This document shows positions 9,001-18,000 of a DNA stretch of 64,000 bases, piece after piece. Positions within the stretch are counted from its first letter, which is position 1. Each line of letters opens with the position of its first letter. The DNA comes from Candidatus Omnitrophota bacterium (lineage in GTDB: Bacteria > Omnitrophota > Gorgyraeia > Gygaellales > Profunditerraquicolaceae), in the NCBI GenBank assembly GCA_026387355.1, contig JAPLLW010000015.1, positions 27,569-91,568 of the forward strand. Reading direction: 5' to 3'. A program made the position numbers.

Positions 9001-12000
9001 AATAGCGTTGAGTTTAAGAGCCGAAAAATAATTATAGATAGTTCCTTTCTTAGAATATTTTGTACCGTATGTTTTTTTACCGCGCTGATATCTGCAGTTA
9101 AGATATTACCGTTCTTGCAGTTATTGTCTTTAAACAATAGAATTAGCGGCCTCAGCTATTTAAATGCTGTCTCAGATGCTAATACTCTAAGTCTGTTTTT
9201 TAGGAGGCTTTTAGTTCCTGAAAGCTTGGGGCCAGGGACAATGTACTTGGGTTTATTACCTGTAACGCTTTTTTTATTTGCCTGCTTAGTTTATTTGCGT
9301 CAACTGAGAGGCTATATAATAATTTTAACAGCATTTATTATTCTCTCTTTTGGTCCGAATAGCTTTGTTGATTTACATAGGTTGTTGTGGAATTTACCAA
9401 TCTTTAATTCCCTCAAAGAGATTTCTAAGTACTATTCTATAATCATTGTTTTCTTAGTAGCATTAATAAGCGGAAGAATATTTGCAAAGTTTACCAATCT
9501 AAAGCTTAAACCGCTCTCGGTTATGTTACCGGCGGTTATTATCATATTCACTTATCTAAATTTATTCAATTCGAATATAGGTTATTTTAGTTCATTTAAT
9601 ACTAGGCTGAATTATAGCCCGGTAGCAGGAGAGACTTTTCAAGTAAAAGGATTTAATATCCATCATGGGGATGAATCAATTTCAGAAGCTTTATTTTATT
9701 TCTTGGCAAAGAAAAATGTTGGTTTCATGAATTTCGAGTTTTATTTGAAACTAAAATCTAGCGTTGCGCCAAGATATTACTTATTGCCAAAATATGCTTT
9801 CTTGATGCCGTATTCTTCTTTATTTGTTTTGCCCAATCCTTATTATAAAGGGGAGGTTTTCTTCTTGAGTAACAATAATGATGCTAGACTAATAAATATT
9901 TCTCCAAACCTGATCTCGGTTAAGATTAATACCTTAAATCCAGATAGATTGGTAATTAACCAGAACTTTGATCGAGATTGGAATTCAAATAAAGGCAAGA
10001 TAGAGGGTTATAATGGTTTACTTTCTGTAAGGCTTAACAAGGGAGAGACTGGCTTGCTGCGTCTCACGTATTTTCCTAAGCTTTTATTTTTGGGCTTGTT
10101 GATAAGTCTGGTATCTCTTGTCGCGAGTTTTTTTGTACTGTTTAAAAAGGAGGCCTAAACAATGCACATTAGATTTGTCCATACGGAGTTTGATGCTTTA
10201 GGAATTGAGCATCTTTCTGCCGTGTTAAAACAAGCCGGGCATTCAACGGATTTGTTCTTTAGCTTTCAGCGAGGGTATAAATGGATCAGTAAAATATTGA
10301 AGAATAGCCCCGATCTTATAGCATTTTCTGTTACGAGCAATAATATAGAATGGGCATATGCAGTAGCAGAGCAAATTAAAAGGCATTCTTGTGTACCGAT
10401 AGTGTTCGGAGGTATTCAGGCCACCCTTATCCCAGAGGCGGTTATTTCAAAAGACTTTGTTGATTTCGTAATCGTCGGTGAAGGTGAATATGCTTTACTG
10501 AATTTAGTAGAGGCTATAAGAAAAGGTGATTCTTTCAGTAGTATAAATAGTCTTTATTTTAAAATCAAAGGGAAATTGTTTAAGAACCCATTGAGCGGGC
10601 CAATCAATAATTTAAACGAACTTCCGTTTCCTGATAAAGAGCTATGTCAGGGAAAAGGTATGTTTTCCGACAGGTATTCGATAATTACAGGCAGGGGTTG
10701 CGTGGGCGCTTGTACATATTGTTGCGTGCCTTTTTTAAGGAAAATGTATCAGGGGAAAGGTGAATTCTTAAGGAGGCGTTCACCGGAGAATGTAATAAAA
10801 GAGCTTATTATGGCTAAAAGTAAATACAATATAAAGAGGGTGTTCTTTGAAGACGACCTGTTTACCTATGATAAAAAATGGTTAAGAACTTTTGCTGATT
10901 CTTATAAGCGGGAAATAACGTTACCTTGCATTCTTTGCGCGCATCCTAATTTTCTCGATGAGGAAGTTGTTAACTTATTAAAAAAGATTGATTGTAAAAT
11001 AGTTGAAATCGGAGTGCAGAGTTTAAATGAGGAGATACGCTTAAATATCCTTAAAAGAAATTATACAAATGAGAATTTAAGCAAAGCCTTAAGGCTCCTT
11101 AGGGATAATAATATTTGTTCTATCGCGGATAATATTGTAGGTCTTCCTGGTGAGGAAAAGGAAGATATCCTAAAAATGGTTAGATTTTATAATGAAATCA
11201 GGCCGGGTAAAGTTGATATCTTTTATCTTAAATATTATCCCGGGCTAGAGATAACAAAGAAAAGCAATTTGGATCCAGCTATGGTTGAAGCGATAAGCAG
11301 AGGGGAGATTTCCCAACTACCTATTGTTGAAAGCGATCAGAATTTATATAACTCTAAACTGATAAATAGGCTTCTTTTAGTAGTAAGCCTAATGTATGTA
11401 TTGCCCAAAAAGGTTATTAATTTTATACTCGATAAAAATCTGTATAATTTTATGCCGCATTTTAAGAGTTGCTATCATATTAATGAGGTCGCATTTTACT
11501 GCTCCTTGATTTTTAGGCGTAGATTCCATGGCGCATTTATTTCCCTAAGGGGAAATCTTCGCAATAATGCCAAATTTTTTATTAAACAGTTTCTAGGTTA
11601 AGGCGCATAAAACTTAATGGAAAAAAATAAGGATATTTTTAGGGCGACAAGAAGTATTTGTCCTTTATGTTGTAATACAGTTAAAAGTGTAATCATAGAA
11701 GAAGACGGTAAGGTTTTTCTTCGGAAGAATTGTCCCTCCTGTGGCATCTCCAATCTGTTGCTATCCAAATCGCCGGCATACTATAGGGAACTTGATTTAT
11801 TATATTTTAATATAATGAATCAAGACCGGGATTTACCGGAAACAGAAGTATACCTTACCTATCGATGCAATATGAAGTGTCCGATTTGTTATTTGGAGAT
11901 AAGTAATCAAGATTTACAATGCAAAGAGCCGACCTGCGATGATATTGAAAGCTATATAAAAAATAGTAGTAAGACTTTTTTTATTCTCACCGGGGGTGAG

Positions 12001-15000: not shown

Positions 15001-18000
15001 CTCCTGAAAATGTAATTGCAGAATTAGAGGAAGCAAAGCTCAAATATAAAACTAAACAGATATTTTTTGATGACAGCACTTTTACTTATGACAGAAAATG
15101 GCTTAAGGCATTTGCAGAGAAGTATAAAAGTAAAATAAGTTTACCTTTTTTCTGCTGGGTCTATCCTACTAATGTTGATGAGGAGTTATTGGAGATATTG
15201 AAATTTATGAATTGCCGCGCAGTGGAGATGGGGGTGGAAAGTTTGAATCCGGAAATAAGAGCCGGGTTATTCCACCGTTTCTATACTAATTCCACTGTAG
15301 AAAGAGCAATAAATTTATTTAATAAGAATAATATATTTTGCGTCGTAGACAATATAAAAGGTTTCTCCGGAAACATTGAGGAAGAAGCAAGGGAGCTTGC
15401 CGATTTTTATAACAGGAATAGACCGAATAAGATATATATGTTTGAGCACCGCTCTTTTCCTAAAACAGAAATCAGGGAGTTGATTAAATCAAGCAAAGAA
15501 AGTCCTAAAAAAGAGTTGTTGCCTTTTACTATTAATACTGAAGTGACCACTTGTGTAGCTAAACAACTGGAGCTACTTTTAGTTTTAATTTATTTTCTTC
15601 CTCCTAGCGCAGTGCGCTTTATATTAAAAAACAGGCTTTATCGGTTTTTCCCGCCATTACGATCGTATAATCTTCTGGAAATGTTCCCTTATTTCTTAAA
15701 TTTACTAAAAATAAAAAAACTCCGTTTATGGTATCCGATTAGGGGTACCAGAAGAAGGTATGTCCATTATATTTTTTCTAACCCCTTATATTTTATAAAA
15801 GGACTGCGAAGATTATGGGTATAAAAGTGGCCTTTGTTACTGGCCCGGAAGAAAATTTGGGGATTAAGTATCTTTCCGCTGTATTAAGAGGCCAAGGCCA
15901 TAAGATAAGGTTATTCTGCGATCCTCAATTGTTCAATGATGAAATTTTGTCTATAAAACCGCTTAGCTGGGTATTCGATTCGAAGAATAGATTAGTAGCG
16001 GATCTTTTAAATTACGAGCCCGATCTGATAGGTTTTTCGGTATGTACTGATTTTTCAAGCTGGGCTTATGATTTAGCTGTAAAGATCAAAGAAAAGACAA
16101 ATATCCCCATAATATTCGGCGGGATACATCCAACCTCTGTCCCTGATGAAGTGATGAGCTTGGAAGCAGTTGATATGGCCTGTATTGGAGAGGGCGAATA
16201 TCCCCTGTTGGAATTAGCTGATAGTTTGAGTAAGGGGCAAGTCGATTGTAATATTAAAAACATATGGTTTAGAAAAGACGGGCGCATTATAAAAAATCCA
16301 GTCAGGCAGTTAGTTGATATAAACAACCTTCCTTTCCCTGATCATGAATTGTACTGCAGTAGAAAAAATGCTTATTTTAGGATAGGCTATCATACAAGCG
16401 CTTCAAGGGGGTGTCCTTATAATTGTAGTTATTGCTGCCACTCAATATTAAAGAATTTATACGGCCAAGCCAATTATTATAGAATACGAAACCCGATTAA
16501 CCTAATTAAAGAGCTAAGCATAGCCTTAGAACGCTATAGATTTAAAGTAGTTAGATTCCACGATGATGTGTTTCCATGCGATGTGCAGTGGTTGGAAGAA
16601 TTTGCGGATTCGTATCGCAAAAATGTTTTCGTGCCATTTATCTGCTATCTTCATCCGGAATTGGTAAATGAAGACAGAATAGCTCTTCTTAAAAAAGCGG
16701 GCTGTTCAGAGATAAGGTTAGGTATTCAAACATTGAATCATAAGATTAGAAAAGAAATACTAAATAGGCATGAGTCCAATGAGGTAATTGAAAAATCGTT
16801 GGATTTAATAAGAGGGAATGGGATTAAGGCTGTTACGGAAAATATGCTCGGTTTACCTAAACAAAATGATTCAGATATAATCTCAATGATACATTTTTAC
16901 AATAAGAACAGGGTGACGAGAAGCCACTATTTTTGGCTTAGATATTATCCAGGGCTTGGAATTCAAAAACATAAAGATAGTTCTGGACTGTCGTTCCATA
17001 AAGAAAAATACGGTAAAGTATTTACGCAGGGCGGAGATACTTATAAAGATACCAACCCGAAATTAATAACTACTTTGTATATCTTGCCTTTTTTGCCGCG
17101 ATGGCTGGTTGAATTTATAATAAATAAAAAGATCTGGAGATTTCTTCCCGGGTTTATCCCGCTCTGGTCACTTAATTTAATCGCTAATGTTACAAGCAAC
17201 TCTAGCTCTGACAGAATTTGGAGAGCACGCACAATCAGAAGGTATTTGTTTCCTGTTATTAATGTTAATAAATGAAAACCAAAATACCCAGAAACAGGCT
17301 TTATTTTAAGAAAACTTTACTTATTAAGGCGTTTGCTTTTTTATTTACTCCTAAAGCGTTGGAAGGAGAGTACGTCGAGATTTTTGAGAAAGAATTTAAA
17401 GATTTTATAGGGGCAAGGCATGCAATTGCCGTTTCAAGCGGTAAACTAGCTTTATATTTATGTTTAAAATATTTGGGCGCAGAAAAAGGAGATAAAGTGA
17501 TTTTATCTGATTTTAATGTTCCTGAAGTCCCTGCGTTATTAGCTAGCTCTGGGTTTATCCCGGTATTAGTCGATATTGATCGCGACACTTTTAATATCAA
17601 CCCGGATTTAATTGAGCAAAATATTGATAAAAGAACAAAGTTTATAGTTGTTACTCATATGTTTGGAGTTCCCGCGGAGATTAAAAGGATCTGCACGATT
17701 GCTAAAAAACATAACCTTAAAATAATCGAAGATGCATGTCAGGCTTTGGGTTCTGAATACCAAGGACATAAGGTCGGGATTTTCGGAGACGCCGGATATT
17801 TTAGTTTAGGCTTGCTAAAACCCTTGAGTGCCCTAAATGGGGGGATAATCGTTACAAATAATAATGAATTAGCAAATAATATAAGGAAAGAAATAGCCCA
17901 ATATAGCAACATAGAAAGGATTAAACTGTTTAAGGACCTGATAAAGACGGGCTTAATAATTTTTCTGACTAATAAAGAAGTTTTTAATTATTTAACGTAT

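Follow-up and report, generated by a model that had tools for sequence, protein, structure and literature searches.

The five consecutive radical SAM (rSAM) genes at 10162..17275 of the window (the whole 64,000-nucleotide stretch of Candidatus Omnitrophota DNA that was analysed) belong to a gene cluster that is conserved in Omnitrophota, and rather than being recent local duplicates they are paralogs of ancient origin, for each of which separate orthologs exist in other genomes. We assign a probability of about 55% to the reading that this run is the core of a conserved operon that tailors an amino sugar, or an N-acyl or lipid-linked form of it, by radical chemistry before it is placed in the envelope. 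The locus would most likely encode an anaerobic, radical-based tailoring line, with a chemistry that we infer, for a cell-envelope amino sugar delivered by polyprenyl phosphate.

The first-pass annotation had described five rSAM genes in a row, and all five open reading frames were found intact, at precisely the positions given, on the + strand, which also carries the other locus genes described below. Each scores 69-106 bits against the Pfam Radical_SAM model (gathering cutoff 29.5) and contains one CX3CX2C motif. The two architectural types that had been distinguished were borne out by Pfam and by alignment, and are true paralogs. B12a (10162..11601, 479 aa, CX3CX2C at residue 180; B12-binding 63.4 and Radical_SAM 81.2 bits), B12b (14334..15824, 496 aa) and B12c (15815..17275, 486 aa) have a B12-binding domain at the N-terminus (57-68 bits, cutoff 32.1), while Zn1 (11617..12975, 452 aa) and Zn2 (12982..14334, 450 aa) have a Zn_ribbon_HMPTM domain there (44 and 55 bits, respectively, cutoff 27), with a rubredoxin-like CX2CX20CX2C motif in Zn1 and CX2CX20CX2H in Zn2. 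Because the genes are separated by gaps of 15 and 6 nt or overlap by 1, 10 and 4 nt, they fit one tightly packed operon.

Of the 23 genes that span 388 to 28654, eleven encode rSAM proteins (11 in 28 kb). The rSAM family normally accounts for a small percentage of genes, and by our estimate such a density is not attributable to chance. Missing from the earlier count were B12d (388..1734), a distant HpnJ-like B12-rSAM paralog recognised by Pfam (TIGR03471 HpnJ, 264 bits, below the cutoff of 578), and SPASMa (3778..4731; Pfam Radical_SAM and SPASM, the latter 49 bits), which in relatives lies directly behind the aminotransferase gene degT1. B12e (25512..26942), another distant B12-rSAM paralog, and rS3 (27695..28654; Radical_SAM 31.5 bits, cutoff 29.5; SPASM 16.9 bits, below cutoff) complete the eleven. 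The genes rS1 (23540..24514, about 325 aa) and rS2 (24532..25515) had been called a SPASM pair. This stands in part: neither gave a Pfam SPASM match at E <= 0.01, but each has seven C-terminal Cys, and alignments to SPASM-type maturases extend into this region. Three more clear rSAM genes are found in the window at 32266, 51090 and 61323, and a 1048-aa rSAM-GT2-GT2 fusion is encoded directly upstream of it.

The partner genes are of glycan type. They encode an AsnB-type glutamine amidotransferase (1753..3642; Pfam Asn_synthase and GATase_7; TIGR01536 413 bits, cutoff 267), the PseC/LegC/ArnB-like sugar aminotransferase DegT1 (6435..7505; Pfam DegT 293 bits; NCBIfam), a second sugar aminotransferase, DegT2 (17272..18528; Pfam DegT 222 bits), a WbqC-like protein (21277..21987; Pfam WbqC 257 bits) and two short family-2 glycosyltransferases, GT2a (18537..19259) and GT2b (26917..27672), recognised by Pfam and resembling ArnC/PpgS-type polyprenyl-phosphate sugar synthases in NCBIfam. 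A PMT_2/ArnT-type GT-C glycosyltransferase lies at 21984..23543 (PMT_2 49 bits, cutoff 26.1; 11 TM-like windows). A divergent YfhO-like GT-C membrane glycosyltransferase, hyp611 (8323..10158), is indicated by its polytopic hydropathy (16 partly overlapping hydrophobic windows), by its homologs, 3 of 18 of which match Pfam YfhO, and by its AF2 model, for which the significant PDB matches are all GT-C enzymes (TM 0.41-0.46). No Pfam match was obtained for the conserved hypothetical protein hyp275 (7536..8363), which has one N-terminal TM-like segment and adjoins hyp611 in the related loci L006 and L020, or for hyp641 (19325..21250), a polytopic protein with 13 TM-like windows and no family assigned. 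No nucleotidyltransferase, sugar 4,6-dehydratase or GtrA-type flippase was recognised in the locus. Downstream of it lie genes for a carbamoyltransferase and a MacB-type ABC exporter.

The DegT1-SPASM pairing, Zn-type copies, DegT2 and B12 arrays are shared across 18 Omnitrophota loci, and fetched loci of this type contain 4-12 rSAM-like ORFs each. In L004/L006 the order is DegT1-SPASM-hyp275-hyp611-B12a-Zn1-Zn2-B12b-B12c-DegT2-GT2-WbqC, at 46-68% amino-acid identity. B12a always follows the GT-C gene hyp611 in L006, L019, L020 and L026, and wherever related loci show both, Zn2-type copies stand ahead of the B12 array. The B12 arrays comprise 3-5 order-conserved paralogs, more than in any characterised pathway known to us, which in other genomes form position-specific orthogroups (86-100% bootstrap). 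B12-rSAM homologs of ~40% identity occur in one Woesearchaeota and one Patescibacteria contig beside GT2, epimerase and polysaccharide deacetylase genes. The literature searched contained no published description of this locus type.

The following sequence of steps could be envisaged. The DegT aminotransferases would aminate a sugar precursor. As the cluster contains no SDR-type dehydratase or oxidase, the SPASM-type rSAM that neighbours DegT1 in relatives could provide the keto intermediate under anaerobic conditions, much as BtrN serves BtrS. The WbqC-like and AsnB-like proteins would then add acyl or amide groups. Using a 5'-deoxyadenosyl radical and cobalamin, the three B12-rSAM enzymes might each modify a different unactivated carbon, most likely by C-methylation. 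The two GDGT-MAS-like enzymes Zn1 and Zn2 would combine the rSAM cluster with the rubredoxin-like site and a single auxiliary cluster at the C-terminus in a further radical reaction; this may be an alkylation or the formation of a C-C bond, and its substrate may be a lipid-linked intermediate. Finally, the short GT2 enzymes would load the product onto polyprenyl phosphate, and the GT-C enzymes (8323, 21984 and perhaps 19325) would transfer it outside the cytoplasm. Of the enzymes scored, none qualifies by the NCBIfam cutoffs as a member of a characterised equivalog family; every reaction is therefore assigned by analogy, and the substrate and the step order are likewise what we infer from the domains, paralogy, gene order, glycan context and GDGT-MAS fold observed.

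In its DegT protein, short ArnC-like GT2s and PMT_2/ArnT-type and YfhO-like GT-C enzymes, the operon resembles systems that glycosylate outside the cytoplasm with the help of polyprenyl phosphate, namely ArnB/ArnC/ArnT of lipid A modification and CsbB/YfhO or GtrB/GtrC. It differs in that no ArnA formyltransferase/decarboxylase, ArnD deformylase or small flippase was recognised in the locus, in that all similarity scores to polyprenyl-phosphate glycosylation systems lie below equivalog cutoffs, and in its eleven interleaved rSAM genes, for which we know of no parallel in any described system of this kind.

The B12-type proteins have the same order of N-terminal B12-binding domain and rSAM core as CysS, TokK, TsrM, the GenK/Fom3-type methylases, AprD4 and HpnJ. 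Such class B (cobalamin-dependent) enzymes, which tailor natural products or lipids, likewise occur as several diverged paralogs per pathway, each presumably modifying its own position; TokK and CysS carry out sequential methylations. However, the scores of the B12-type proteins of the run are low, at 31-42 bits for solved members and 90-115 bits for the named NCBIfam families that match best (cutoffs 251-750), and their context is one of envelope-glycan genes in uncultured anaerobes. Iterative methylation, which the first-pass annotation had offered as an example, is plausible by analogy for the B12-type genes, although by sequence methyl transfer cannot be distinguished from other class B chemistry such as ring contraction, dehydration or cyclisation. 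For the Zn-type genes the suggestion has no basis: the 'methylase' annotation of MJ0619 on which the HMPTM family was founded found no corroboration, and MJ0619 proved to be a lipid synthase that forms C-C bonds (PMC9433317).

That enzyme, the archaeal tetraether lipid synthase GDGT-MAS/Tes, has its fold in common with the Zn-type proteins over the full length. The AF2 model of Zn1 (pLDDT 93) aligned with 7tol/7tom at TM 0.78/0.72 over 491 columns (E 2.6e-32). Both have the CX3CX2C rSAM cluster, a conserved rubredoxin-like CX2CX20CX2(H/C) motif of identical spacing, and two of the C-terminal Cys present in every Tes-like protein. Nevertheless, identity is only about 23%, and the Tes model NF045702 gives 157-165 bits for the Zn-type proteins (165 for Zn1) against a cutoff of 450. 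All 95 subfamily members lack the N-terminal [Fe4S4] motif (C73/C77/C80) through a deletion, the third Tes-invariant C-terminal Cys is lost, and in the alignment column of the labile Met439 these proteins carry Thr or Ser, followed three residues on by a new invariant Cys. The Zn-type proteins combine the fold of GDGT-MAS with a different set of cofactor sites.

The best surviving alternative, which we nonetheless consider unlikely, is that hydrocarbon chains are the substrates of the GDGT-MAS-like and B12-rSAM enzymes, whether in membrane-spanning, branched or hopanoid-like lipids or in the polyprenyl carrier itself, and that the sugar genes serve the head group only. The fold of Zn1 speaks for it, and GDGT-MAS, the enzyme of solved structure or characterised function that is closest to the Zn-type proteins, acts on lipids and not on sugars. 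The B12-type proteins have HpnJ and a ladderane-associated lipid family among their best NCBIfam matches (264 bits to HpnJ for B12d), which also speaks against a sugar substrate, though HpnJ itself acts on a sugar head group. Zn1, Zn2, B12a and B12b each contain a hydrophobic stretch, and surveys report homologs of the lipid-coupling rSAM enzymes Mss and Hbs in Omnitrophota MAGs. Against this stand the changes to the cofactor sites and the low Tes scores described above. Furthermore, the bacterial Zn-type genes occur in 1-6 copies per locus among sugar and not lipid genes: the conserved partners are always DegT, GT2, GT-C and WbqC, and no fatty-acid, isoprenoid or ether-lipid gene lies inside 388..28654.

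Also quite improbable is a secreted aminoglycoside- or aminocyclitol-like product, made by DegT, rSAM dehydrogenase and B12-rSAM C-methylases as for butirosin or gentamicin and exported by the downstream ABC system. As in BtrS/BtrN of butirosin, a DegT aminotransferase stands beside a small rSAM protein with a C-terminal auxiliary-cluster domain, without an NAD-dependent oxidase; CysS, AprD4 and TokK are among the top PDB matches of B12b, and the carbamoyltransferase and MacB-type exporter would also fit. The BtrN matches are, however, weak (E about 5e-6; about 29 bits, rSAM core only), and BtrN has a twitch domain whereas the locus protein has SPASM. No inosose synthase or sugar cyclase was found, with two or three GT-C membrane transferases alongside ArnC-like GT2s the locus points to polyprenyl-phosphate delivery to an envelope acceptor, and conservation across many Omnitrophota genomes is seen more typically with envelope biogenesis than with a secondary metabolite of sporadic occurrence. 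A RiPP cluster, whose SPASM and B12-rSAM enzymes would have a small precursor peptide as their substrate, is highly improbable: such combinations are typical of RiPP pathways, weak RiPP-maturase matches are seen in NCBIfam and a 36-aa ORF (4715..4825) lies behind the SPASM gene, but tight packing leaves almost no room for a precursor, relatives have no gap at that ORF because the next gene directly follows SPASMa, no peptidase, RRE or leader-peptide partner was seen in the locus, and the conserved partners are sugar enzymes.

The colinear paralogy proposed earlier is confirmed by full-length alignments of 10162/14334 (36.9% identity, 502 columns), 10162/15815 (35.6%, 464), 14334/15815 (37.8%, 455), 11617/12982 (31.5%, 441) and 23540/24532 (33.9%, 319). 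Similarity within the pairs exceeds that to unrelated rSAM proteins (Zn1/Zn2 249 bits, Zn1/GDGT-MAS 129), and family-conserved catalytic scaffold residues are kept in all copies. The proposed recent local duplication did not survive bootstrapped neighbour-joining trees of corrected p-distances, in which deep nodes are poorly supported: each run gene falls into its own orthogroup at 95-100% bootstrap, with orthologs in other Omnitrophota genomes at 40-70% identity, and no pair is sister. Zn1 and Zn2 (orthogroups at 99.5-100% each) last meet at the node that unites the entire Omnitrophota subfamily (96 of 169 sequences with bootstrap 83, or 101 with bootstrap 99), Zn1 grouping with L006_6577 at 99.5% and Zn2 with copies from L006, L019, L020 and L026 at 100%. 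B12a groups with copies from the same four loci at 100%, B12b with a 28-member orthogroup at 100% (orthologs 50-70% identical) and B12c with its own at 95-100%; the closest B12 couple, if any, is 10162 and 14334 (82.5% in the loci-only tree, 45% in a larger one), not 14334 and 15815. Genes 23540 and 24532 rank each other only 103rd and 61st among 148 relatives. Recent tandem copies under relaxed selection, some redundant or decaying, have almost no probability: lineage-specific tandem duplication is known elsewhere in the Zn-type family (four L020 copies in one clade, 100%), but each window copy is closer to its orthologs than to any window paralog, catalytic residues are retained in every copy, and no DNA-level repeats were found among the window paralogs apart from 72 nt at 72% identity. 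The idea that the paralogs perform chemically related but distinct tailoring steps fits their separate orthologous lineages. In most related genomes DegT2 stands between the Zn1-type and Zn2-type genes, and the adjacency of Zn1 and Zn2 in the window therefore looks like the result of rearrangement rather than of tandem duplication.

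We found that the five radical SAM genes flagged by the first-pass annotation, which start at 10162, 11617, 12982, 14334 and 15815, are all present as ORFs where it had placed them, and that all five score above the Pfam Radical_SAM cutoff. The spacing among them consists of gaps of 15 and 6 nt and overlaps of 1, 10 and 4 nt, and since gaps and overlaps measure only 1–15 nt the five are almost certainly co-transcribed. As a count for the locus, however, five was too low: the region 388..28654, part of a long + strand gene run, holds 23 tightly packed ORFs, 11 of which are radical SAM genes. 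Each of these 11 (the five flagged genes and six more) has one CX3CX2C motif, and across them PF04055 scores 31.5–106 bits against a gathering cutoff of 29.5. The added genes are a B12-type radical SAM gene at 388..1734, a radical SAM/SPASM gene at 3778..4731 (SPASMa) and two that start at 25512 and 27695. The genes at 23540 and 24532 (rS1 and rS2) had already been described as a SPASM pair; they are indeed paralogues (33.9% identity over 319 residues, 192 bits by BLASTP), but neither gave a Pfam match to the SPASM domain PF13186 at E ≤ 0.01. Both have seven C-terminal cysteines, and matches to MftC/PqqE-type models reach into that region. NCBIfam equivalog cutoffs were reached by no radical SAM, DegT aminotransferase or GT2 gene, the AsnB-like gene alone passing, and therefore no specific function can be transferred to the radical SAM, DegT and GT2 genes.

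Genes 10162, 14334 and 15815 (B12a, B12b and B12c) match the N-terminal B12-binding domain PF02310 with 63.4, 68.4 and 57.4 bits, respectively (cutoff 32.1), and have the class B (cobalamin-binding) architecture, in which this domain is fused to a radical SAM core. None of the named B12-radical SAM equivalogs (HpnJ, the ladderane-lipid radical SAM protein, PhpK, BchE, MJ_1487 and others) was matched at its NCBIfam cutoff, the best scores being 90–115 bits (ladderane-associated lipid radical SAM, HpnJ, MJ_1487) against cutoffs of 251–750, and the solved class B enzymes CysS, AprD4, TsrM, TokK and OxsB gave weak matches of 31–42 bits. HpnJ, BchE, AprD4 and OxsB, class B enzymes with other chemistry, are all among these weak matches, and methylases are not separable from such enzymes by sequence alone. 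A database search with 14334 returned about 26 orthologues at 50–70% identity among the best 120 of 2146 matches, followed, among the same 120, by more than 90 proteins at about 36–46% identity; the homologues listed come from Omnitrophota, Woesearchaeota, Aenigmarchaeota, Patescibacteria and Aureabacteria. Given this large family at similar identity, the B12 paralogues of the window resemble each other no more than they resemble the family as a whole. The closest homologues of both 11617 and 14334 are from Omnitrophota/Omnitrophica MAGs, and a hypothetical protein of an NCBI 'Candidatus Omnitrophica bacterium' MAG shows 100% identity to the product of 8323. Outside the Omnitrophota, glycan loci rich in radical SAM genes were also seen in Patescibacteria (L087) and Woesearchaeota (L086), with B12-radical SAM homologues that are about 40% identical.

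Genes 11617 and 12982 (Zn1 and Zn2) carry a 'Zn_ribbon_HMPTM' domain besides Radical_SAM in Pfam. The domain name derives from MJ0619, for which a pterin methylase role could not be confirmed and which is a tetraether lipid synthase (PMC9433317); because MJ0619 is now assigned to GDGT-MAS, we dropped the reading of the Zn-type proteins as 'HMPTM methyltransferases'. Their best NCBIfam matches are Tes (GDGT-MAS) and TrsS, both far under cutoff (165.6 bits for 11617 and 157.5 bits for 12982 with the Tes model NF045702, cutoff 450). When an AlphaFold (AF2) model of Zn1 (pLDDT 93.1) was compared with the GDGT-MAS structures 7tol and 7tom, TM scores of 0.78 and 0.72 were obtained (E 2.6e-32, 491 columns), and the next fold match was MoaA with a TM score of 0.39. 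From this predicted model, Zn1 appears to share the full-length GDGT-MAS fold.

GDGT-MAS has a rubredoxin-like Fe site (C9X2C12X20C33X2H36), an N-terminal [4Fe-4S] cluster (C73, C77, C80), the radical SAM cluster and a C-terminal cluster with a labile Met439 (PMC9433317). It can be seen from the alignments that the rubredoxin-like site is kept at identical spacing, as C15X2C18X20C39X2C42 in Zn1 and C19X2C22X20C43X2H46 in Zn2, and that 98% of 52 subfamily members have its three cysteines and 96% have the His of the fourth position. The N-terminal [Fe4S4] motif of Tes (C73, C77, C80 plus a His) is, in contrast, absent: all 95 members of the Omnitrophota subfamily have gaps at the cysteine columns, at which 52 Tes-like proteins show 96–100% Cys. 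Of the three C-terminal cysteines invariant in Tes-like proteins, the subfamily keeps two (C305 and C416) and has lost one. Thr or Ser stands opposite Met439 in the alignment, followed three residues on by a new, invariant cysteine (C403). Since three cysteines are still left, a C-terminal cluster in the Zn-type proteins is plausible. We conclude that they are related to Tes in fold but are not Tes, and that their cofactor set is both smaller and different. In surveys, organisms are taken for tetraether-lipid producers on the strength of 'Tes homologues', with thresholds such as E < 1e-30 and ≥ 30% identity (PMC11868695), and because Zn1 matches GDGT-MAS at E 2.5e-36 such surveys could pick up Zn-type proteins.

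Tes couples two lipid tails (Csp3–Csp3) on archaeal-type phospholipids, whereas the gene context of the Zn-type proteins is one of sugar and not lipid metabolism. The genes of the locus that do not encode radical SAM proteins are sugar and envelope genes. They include the DegT aminotransferases DegT1 (6435), which resembles PseC, LegC and ArnB, and DegT2 (17272), both recognised with Pfam; a WbqC protein (21277; Pfam); an AsnB-type amidotransferase (Pfam, and above the NCBIfam equivalog cutoff); a GDSL-like protein; the short GT2s GT2a (18537) and GT2b (26917), which are above the PF00535 cutoff and score 28–73 bits, well below cutoffs, with the ArnC, PpgS and dolichyl-phosphate hexose transferase models; a PMT_2/ArnT-type GT-C protein at 21984 (PMT_2 49 bits, cutoff 26.1); and two further polytopic membrane proteins, at 8323 and 19325. 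The products of 7536 (hyp275), 8323 (hyp611), 19325 and 28781 (−) had no Pfam match at E ≤ 5, and PDB sequence searches with WbqC and a hyp611 profile gave nothing useful. A family signal for hyp611 needed homologue collection and structure prediction. It has 24 detectable homologues, of which 18 were aligned and three of these match Pfam YfhO; all 11 of the PDB matches of its model (pLDDT 83.8) at E ≤ 0.001 are GT-C proteins (STT3, PglB, AglB, AftA, ALG12), and ArnT and Pmt4 come next, with E values of up to 0.008. We conclude that GT-C membrane transferases are encoded in the locus, at 21984 and 8323. No small GtrA/ArnEF-type flippase was matched with Pfam among ORFs of at least 80 aa, and no NAD-dependent sugar dehydratase or oxidase was found in the locus. 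The conserved pairing of DegT1 with the SPASM protein could fill this dehydratase/oxidase gap anaerobically, after the manner of BtrS/BtrN; the match of BtrN to the SPASM radical SAM protein of the window is weak, and the parallel is an analogy.

The best-supported reading, to which we give a probability of roughly 0.55, is that the locus would tailor an envelope-bound sugar delivered via polyprenyl phosphate and GT-C enzymes. It is favoured because of the sugar and envelope neighbours, the contexts of homologues outside the phylum and a gene fusion. B12-type homologues on Woesearchaeota and Patescibacteria contigs lie amid GT2, epimerase, methyltransferase and polysaccharide deacetylase genes, and one Patescibacteria locus (L087) has 10 radical SAM genes in 21.5 kb, mixed with genes for GT2, polysaccharide deacetylase, DUF2079 and Peptidase_U32 proteins. 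The fusion, a protein of 1048 aa with radical SAM, Fer4_12 and two GT2 domains, is encoded directly upstream of the locus and physically ties radical SAM chemistry to glycosyl transfer; it was seen on an identical Logan contig (L085:1-2003), and the ORF at 50..325 of the window is its C-terminal end. All reaction assignments are analogies, and structure comparisons rest on predicted models. More speculatively, the B12-radical SAM arrays and the bacterial GDGT-MAS offshoot might form an anaerobic 'radical assembly line' that installs several C-alkyl groups or C–C cross-links on a polyprenyl-linked surface amino sugar of Omnitrophota, with counterparts in CPR bacteria and DPANN archaea and with copy number giving surface diversity, a proposal that we regard as possible but doubtful. 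If true, this would be an undescribed kind of glycan chemistry, and copy-number variation between genomes would lead to surface diversity in mostly uncultured, possibly host-dependent cells.

A lipid or glycolipid substrate would fit with the GDGT-MAS fold, the similarity of the B12-type proteins to HpnJ and the ladderane family and the hydrophobic segments that are present, but as the cofactor features of Tes are missing and the locus is without lipid genes we consider it rather unlikely. Unlikely too, and slightly more so, is a secreted aminoglycoside-like product, which the combination of DegT, radical SAM dehydrogenase, B12-radical SAM, carbamoyltransferase and ABC exporter genes might suggest; the GT-C and ArnC-like GT2 genes and conservation across the phylum argue against it. 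The exporter and carbamoyltransferase genes belong to the stretch 32266..38561, with which the glycan locus may end and which holds a radical SAM/SPASM gene (32266), a MacB-type ABC exporter pair (33398, 34509), the carbamoyltransferase gene (35184) and genes for an SxtJ-like protein (37007) and a SAM methyltransferase (37611). That the locus is a RiPP cluster is highly improbable: B12-radical SAM and SPASM-radical SAM genes do occur together, along with a single 36-aa ORF, but there is no room for a conserved precursor and the partners are sugar enzymes. That ORF (4715..4825), the sole precursor candidate, overlaps the SPASM gene at its end and is among the genes called on the Logan contig; in related loci SPASMa is directly followed by the next gene, with no gap at this place, and because the relatives leave no such room it is probably not a gene. 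The nitrogenase-paralogue clusters of Elusimicrobia, also rich in radical SAM genes, were set aside as a different system, no NifH/NifD-like gene being found among the window genes scanned.

The first-pass annotation had also taken the flagged genes for tandem paralogue pairs that arose by local duplication. Paralogy itself was borne out by BLASTP, since the B12 trio is colinear over the full length (35.6–37.8% identity, 298–326 bits) and so are 11617 and 12982 (31.5% over 441 residues, 249 bits). Every copy, B12-type and Zn-type, has the family-wide conserved residues, and thus no paralogue looks degenerate. Trees were built by neighbour-joining from Kimura-corrected distances with 100–200 bootstraps, deep nodes being weak, using homologues from protein databases, 18 Omnitrophota loci fetched around relatives of 11617 and the ORFs of those loci. 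Zn1 groups with its orthologue from the syntenic locus L006 (99.5% bootstrap) and Zn2 with copies from L006, L019, L020 and L026 (100%), and the smallest supported clade containing both has 96 of 169 sequences at bootstrap 83 (101 sequences at bootstrap 99), which is essentially the whole Omnitrophota subfamily and stands separate from the archaeal Tes-like proteins. The B12 genes 10162, 14334 and 15815 fall into three separate orthogroups (bootstraps 100, 100 and 95–100%), with 47–56% identity within and 34–38% between them. The pairing of 14334 with 15815 did not hold: the sister orthogroups, if any, are those of 10162 and 14334 (82.5% in a tree of the loci only, 45% in a larger tree). For rS1 and rS2, the partner ranks 103rd and 61st among 148 relatives, and their tree is star-like with very low bootstraps, showing only that they are not detectably sisters. 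At the DNA level, the only notable repeat between 10000 and 17400 is a 72-nt stretch of 72% identity, shared by B12b and B12c at a conserved motif of the B12 domain. In other genomes the Zn family does show recent tandem duplication, the four L020 copies forming one clade (100%), but in the window the trees, the conserved residues and the lack of DNA repeats make such duplication the least probable of the explanations considered. We conclude from the trees, the partner ranks and the near-absence of DNA repeats that the radical SAM duplications of the window are old.

Gene order in related loci was also compared. An 18.6-kb contig of another uncultured bacterium (L004/L006), with 46–68% amino-acid identity to the window genes, retains the order DegT1-SPASM-hyp275-hyp611-B12a-Zn1-Zn2-B12b-B12c-DegT2-GT2-WbqC. 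In other loci the recurring pattern starts with DegT1 beside a SPASM radical SAM gene, at least one Zn1-type gene and DegT2, after which come, at times, extra Zn1-type genes, then a Zn2-type gene and an array of 2–5 B12-radical SAM genes. As DegT2 stands between the two Zn lineages in most genomes, the adjacency of Zn1 and Zn2 in the window looks like a rearrangement. The modules hyp611-B12a and Zn2-B12b-B12c were found again in L019, L020 and L026, and the B12 arrays of L008, L010, L012, L014 and L022 consist of position-specific orthogroups (bootstrap 86–100%), so the order of the paralogues is itself conserved. Rows of same-family genes can be old, order-conserved sets of distinct enzymes and not fresh duplicates. 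ORFs matching the radical SAM genes of the window number 4–12 per fetched locus longer than 5 kb, with fewer on partial contigs, and L083 has 13 radical SAM genes within 21.6 kb.

No description of this type of Omnitrophota radical SAM/glycan locus was found in the literature searched. The superfamilies to which the enzymes belong are well known; apparently new are the subfamilies themselves, the order-conserved paralogue arrays in an envelope-type locus, and a second branch of the GDGT-MAS/Tes fold, which is bacterial, has a reduced set of cofactors and lies among sugar rather than lipid genes. Nearly all of the radical SAM chemistry on sugars that has been described belongs, to our knowledge, to antibiotic pathways. 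A locus of the envelope type that occurs phylum-wide and devotes about one gene in two to radical SAM proteins would indicate that many anaerobic glycan modifications are still unexplored, and would supply many candidate enzymes for C–H functionalisation of sugars.

Some further features were noted in the related loci and beyond the glycan region. A MiaB-like radical SAM gene (UPF0004 plus Radical_SAM, about 440 aa), absent from the window, is inserted in the B12-radical SAM array of L003/L010, L022 and L084, and three copies (L010, L012, L022) form a tight clade (100%). The L012:14014 region (CAZAXH010000008.1) has a 918-aa ORF matching Zn-type radical SAM proteins, which may be two Zn genes fused into one or a tandem pair read through. 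In the window, the + strand run is ended by 28781..30475 (−), coding for a 564-aa protein with one N-terminal hydrophobic segment. An AddAB-like helicase–nuclease pair (38781..44836; UvrD-helicase and PD-(D/E)XK) and a tRNA-Gly(TCC) gene (45157..45233) part the glycan region from a lipid or aryl-polyene/ladderane-like cluster at 45292..62714. The latter contains genes for an SDR, an FAD oxidoreductase, ketosynthases (47553 and 57134), an acyltransferase, an AMP-ligase, a radical SAM/SPASM protein (51090), LolA-like (52571) and MMPL-like (53184) proteins, a B12-radical SAM protein (61323) and a weak B12-radical SAM match (60085); Omnitrophota MAGs are reported to contain 'ladderane-like' BGCs (PMC9902471).
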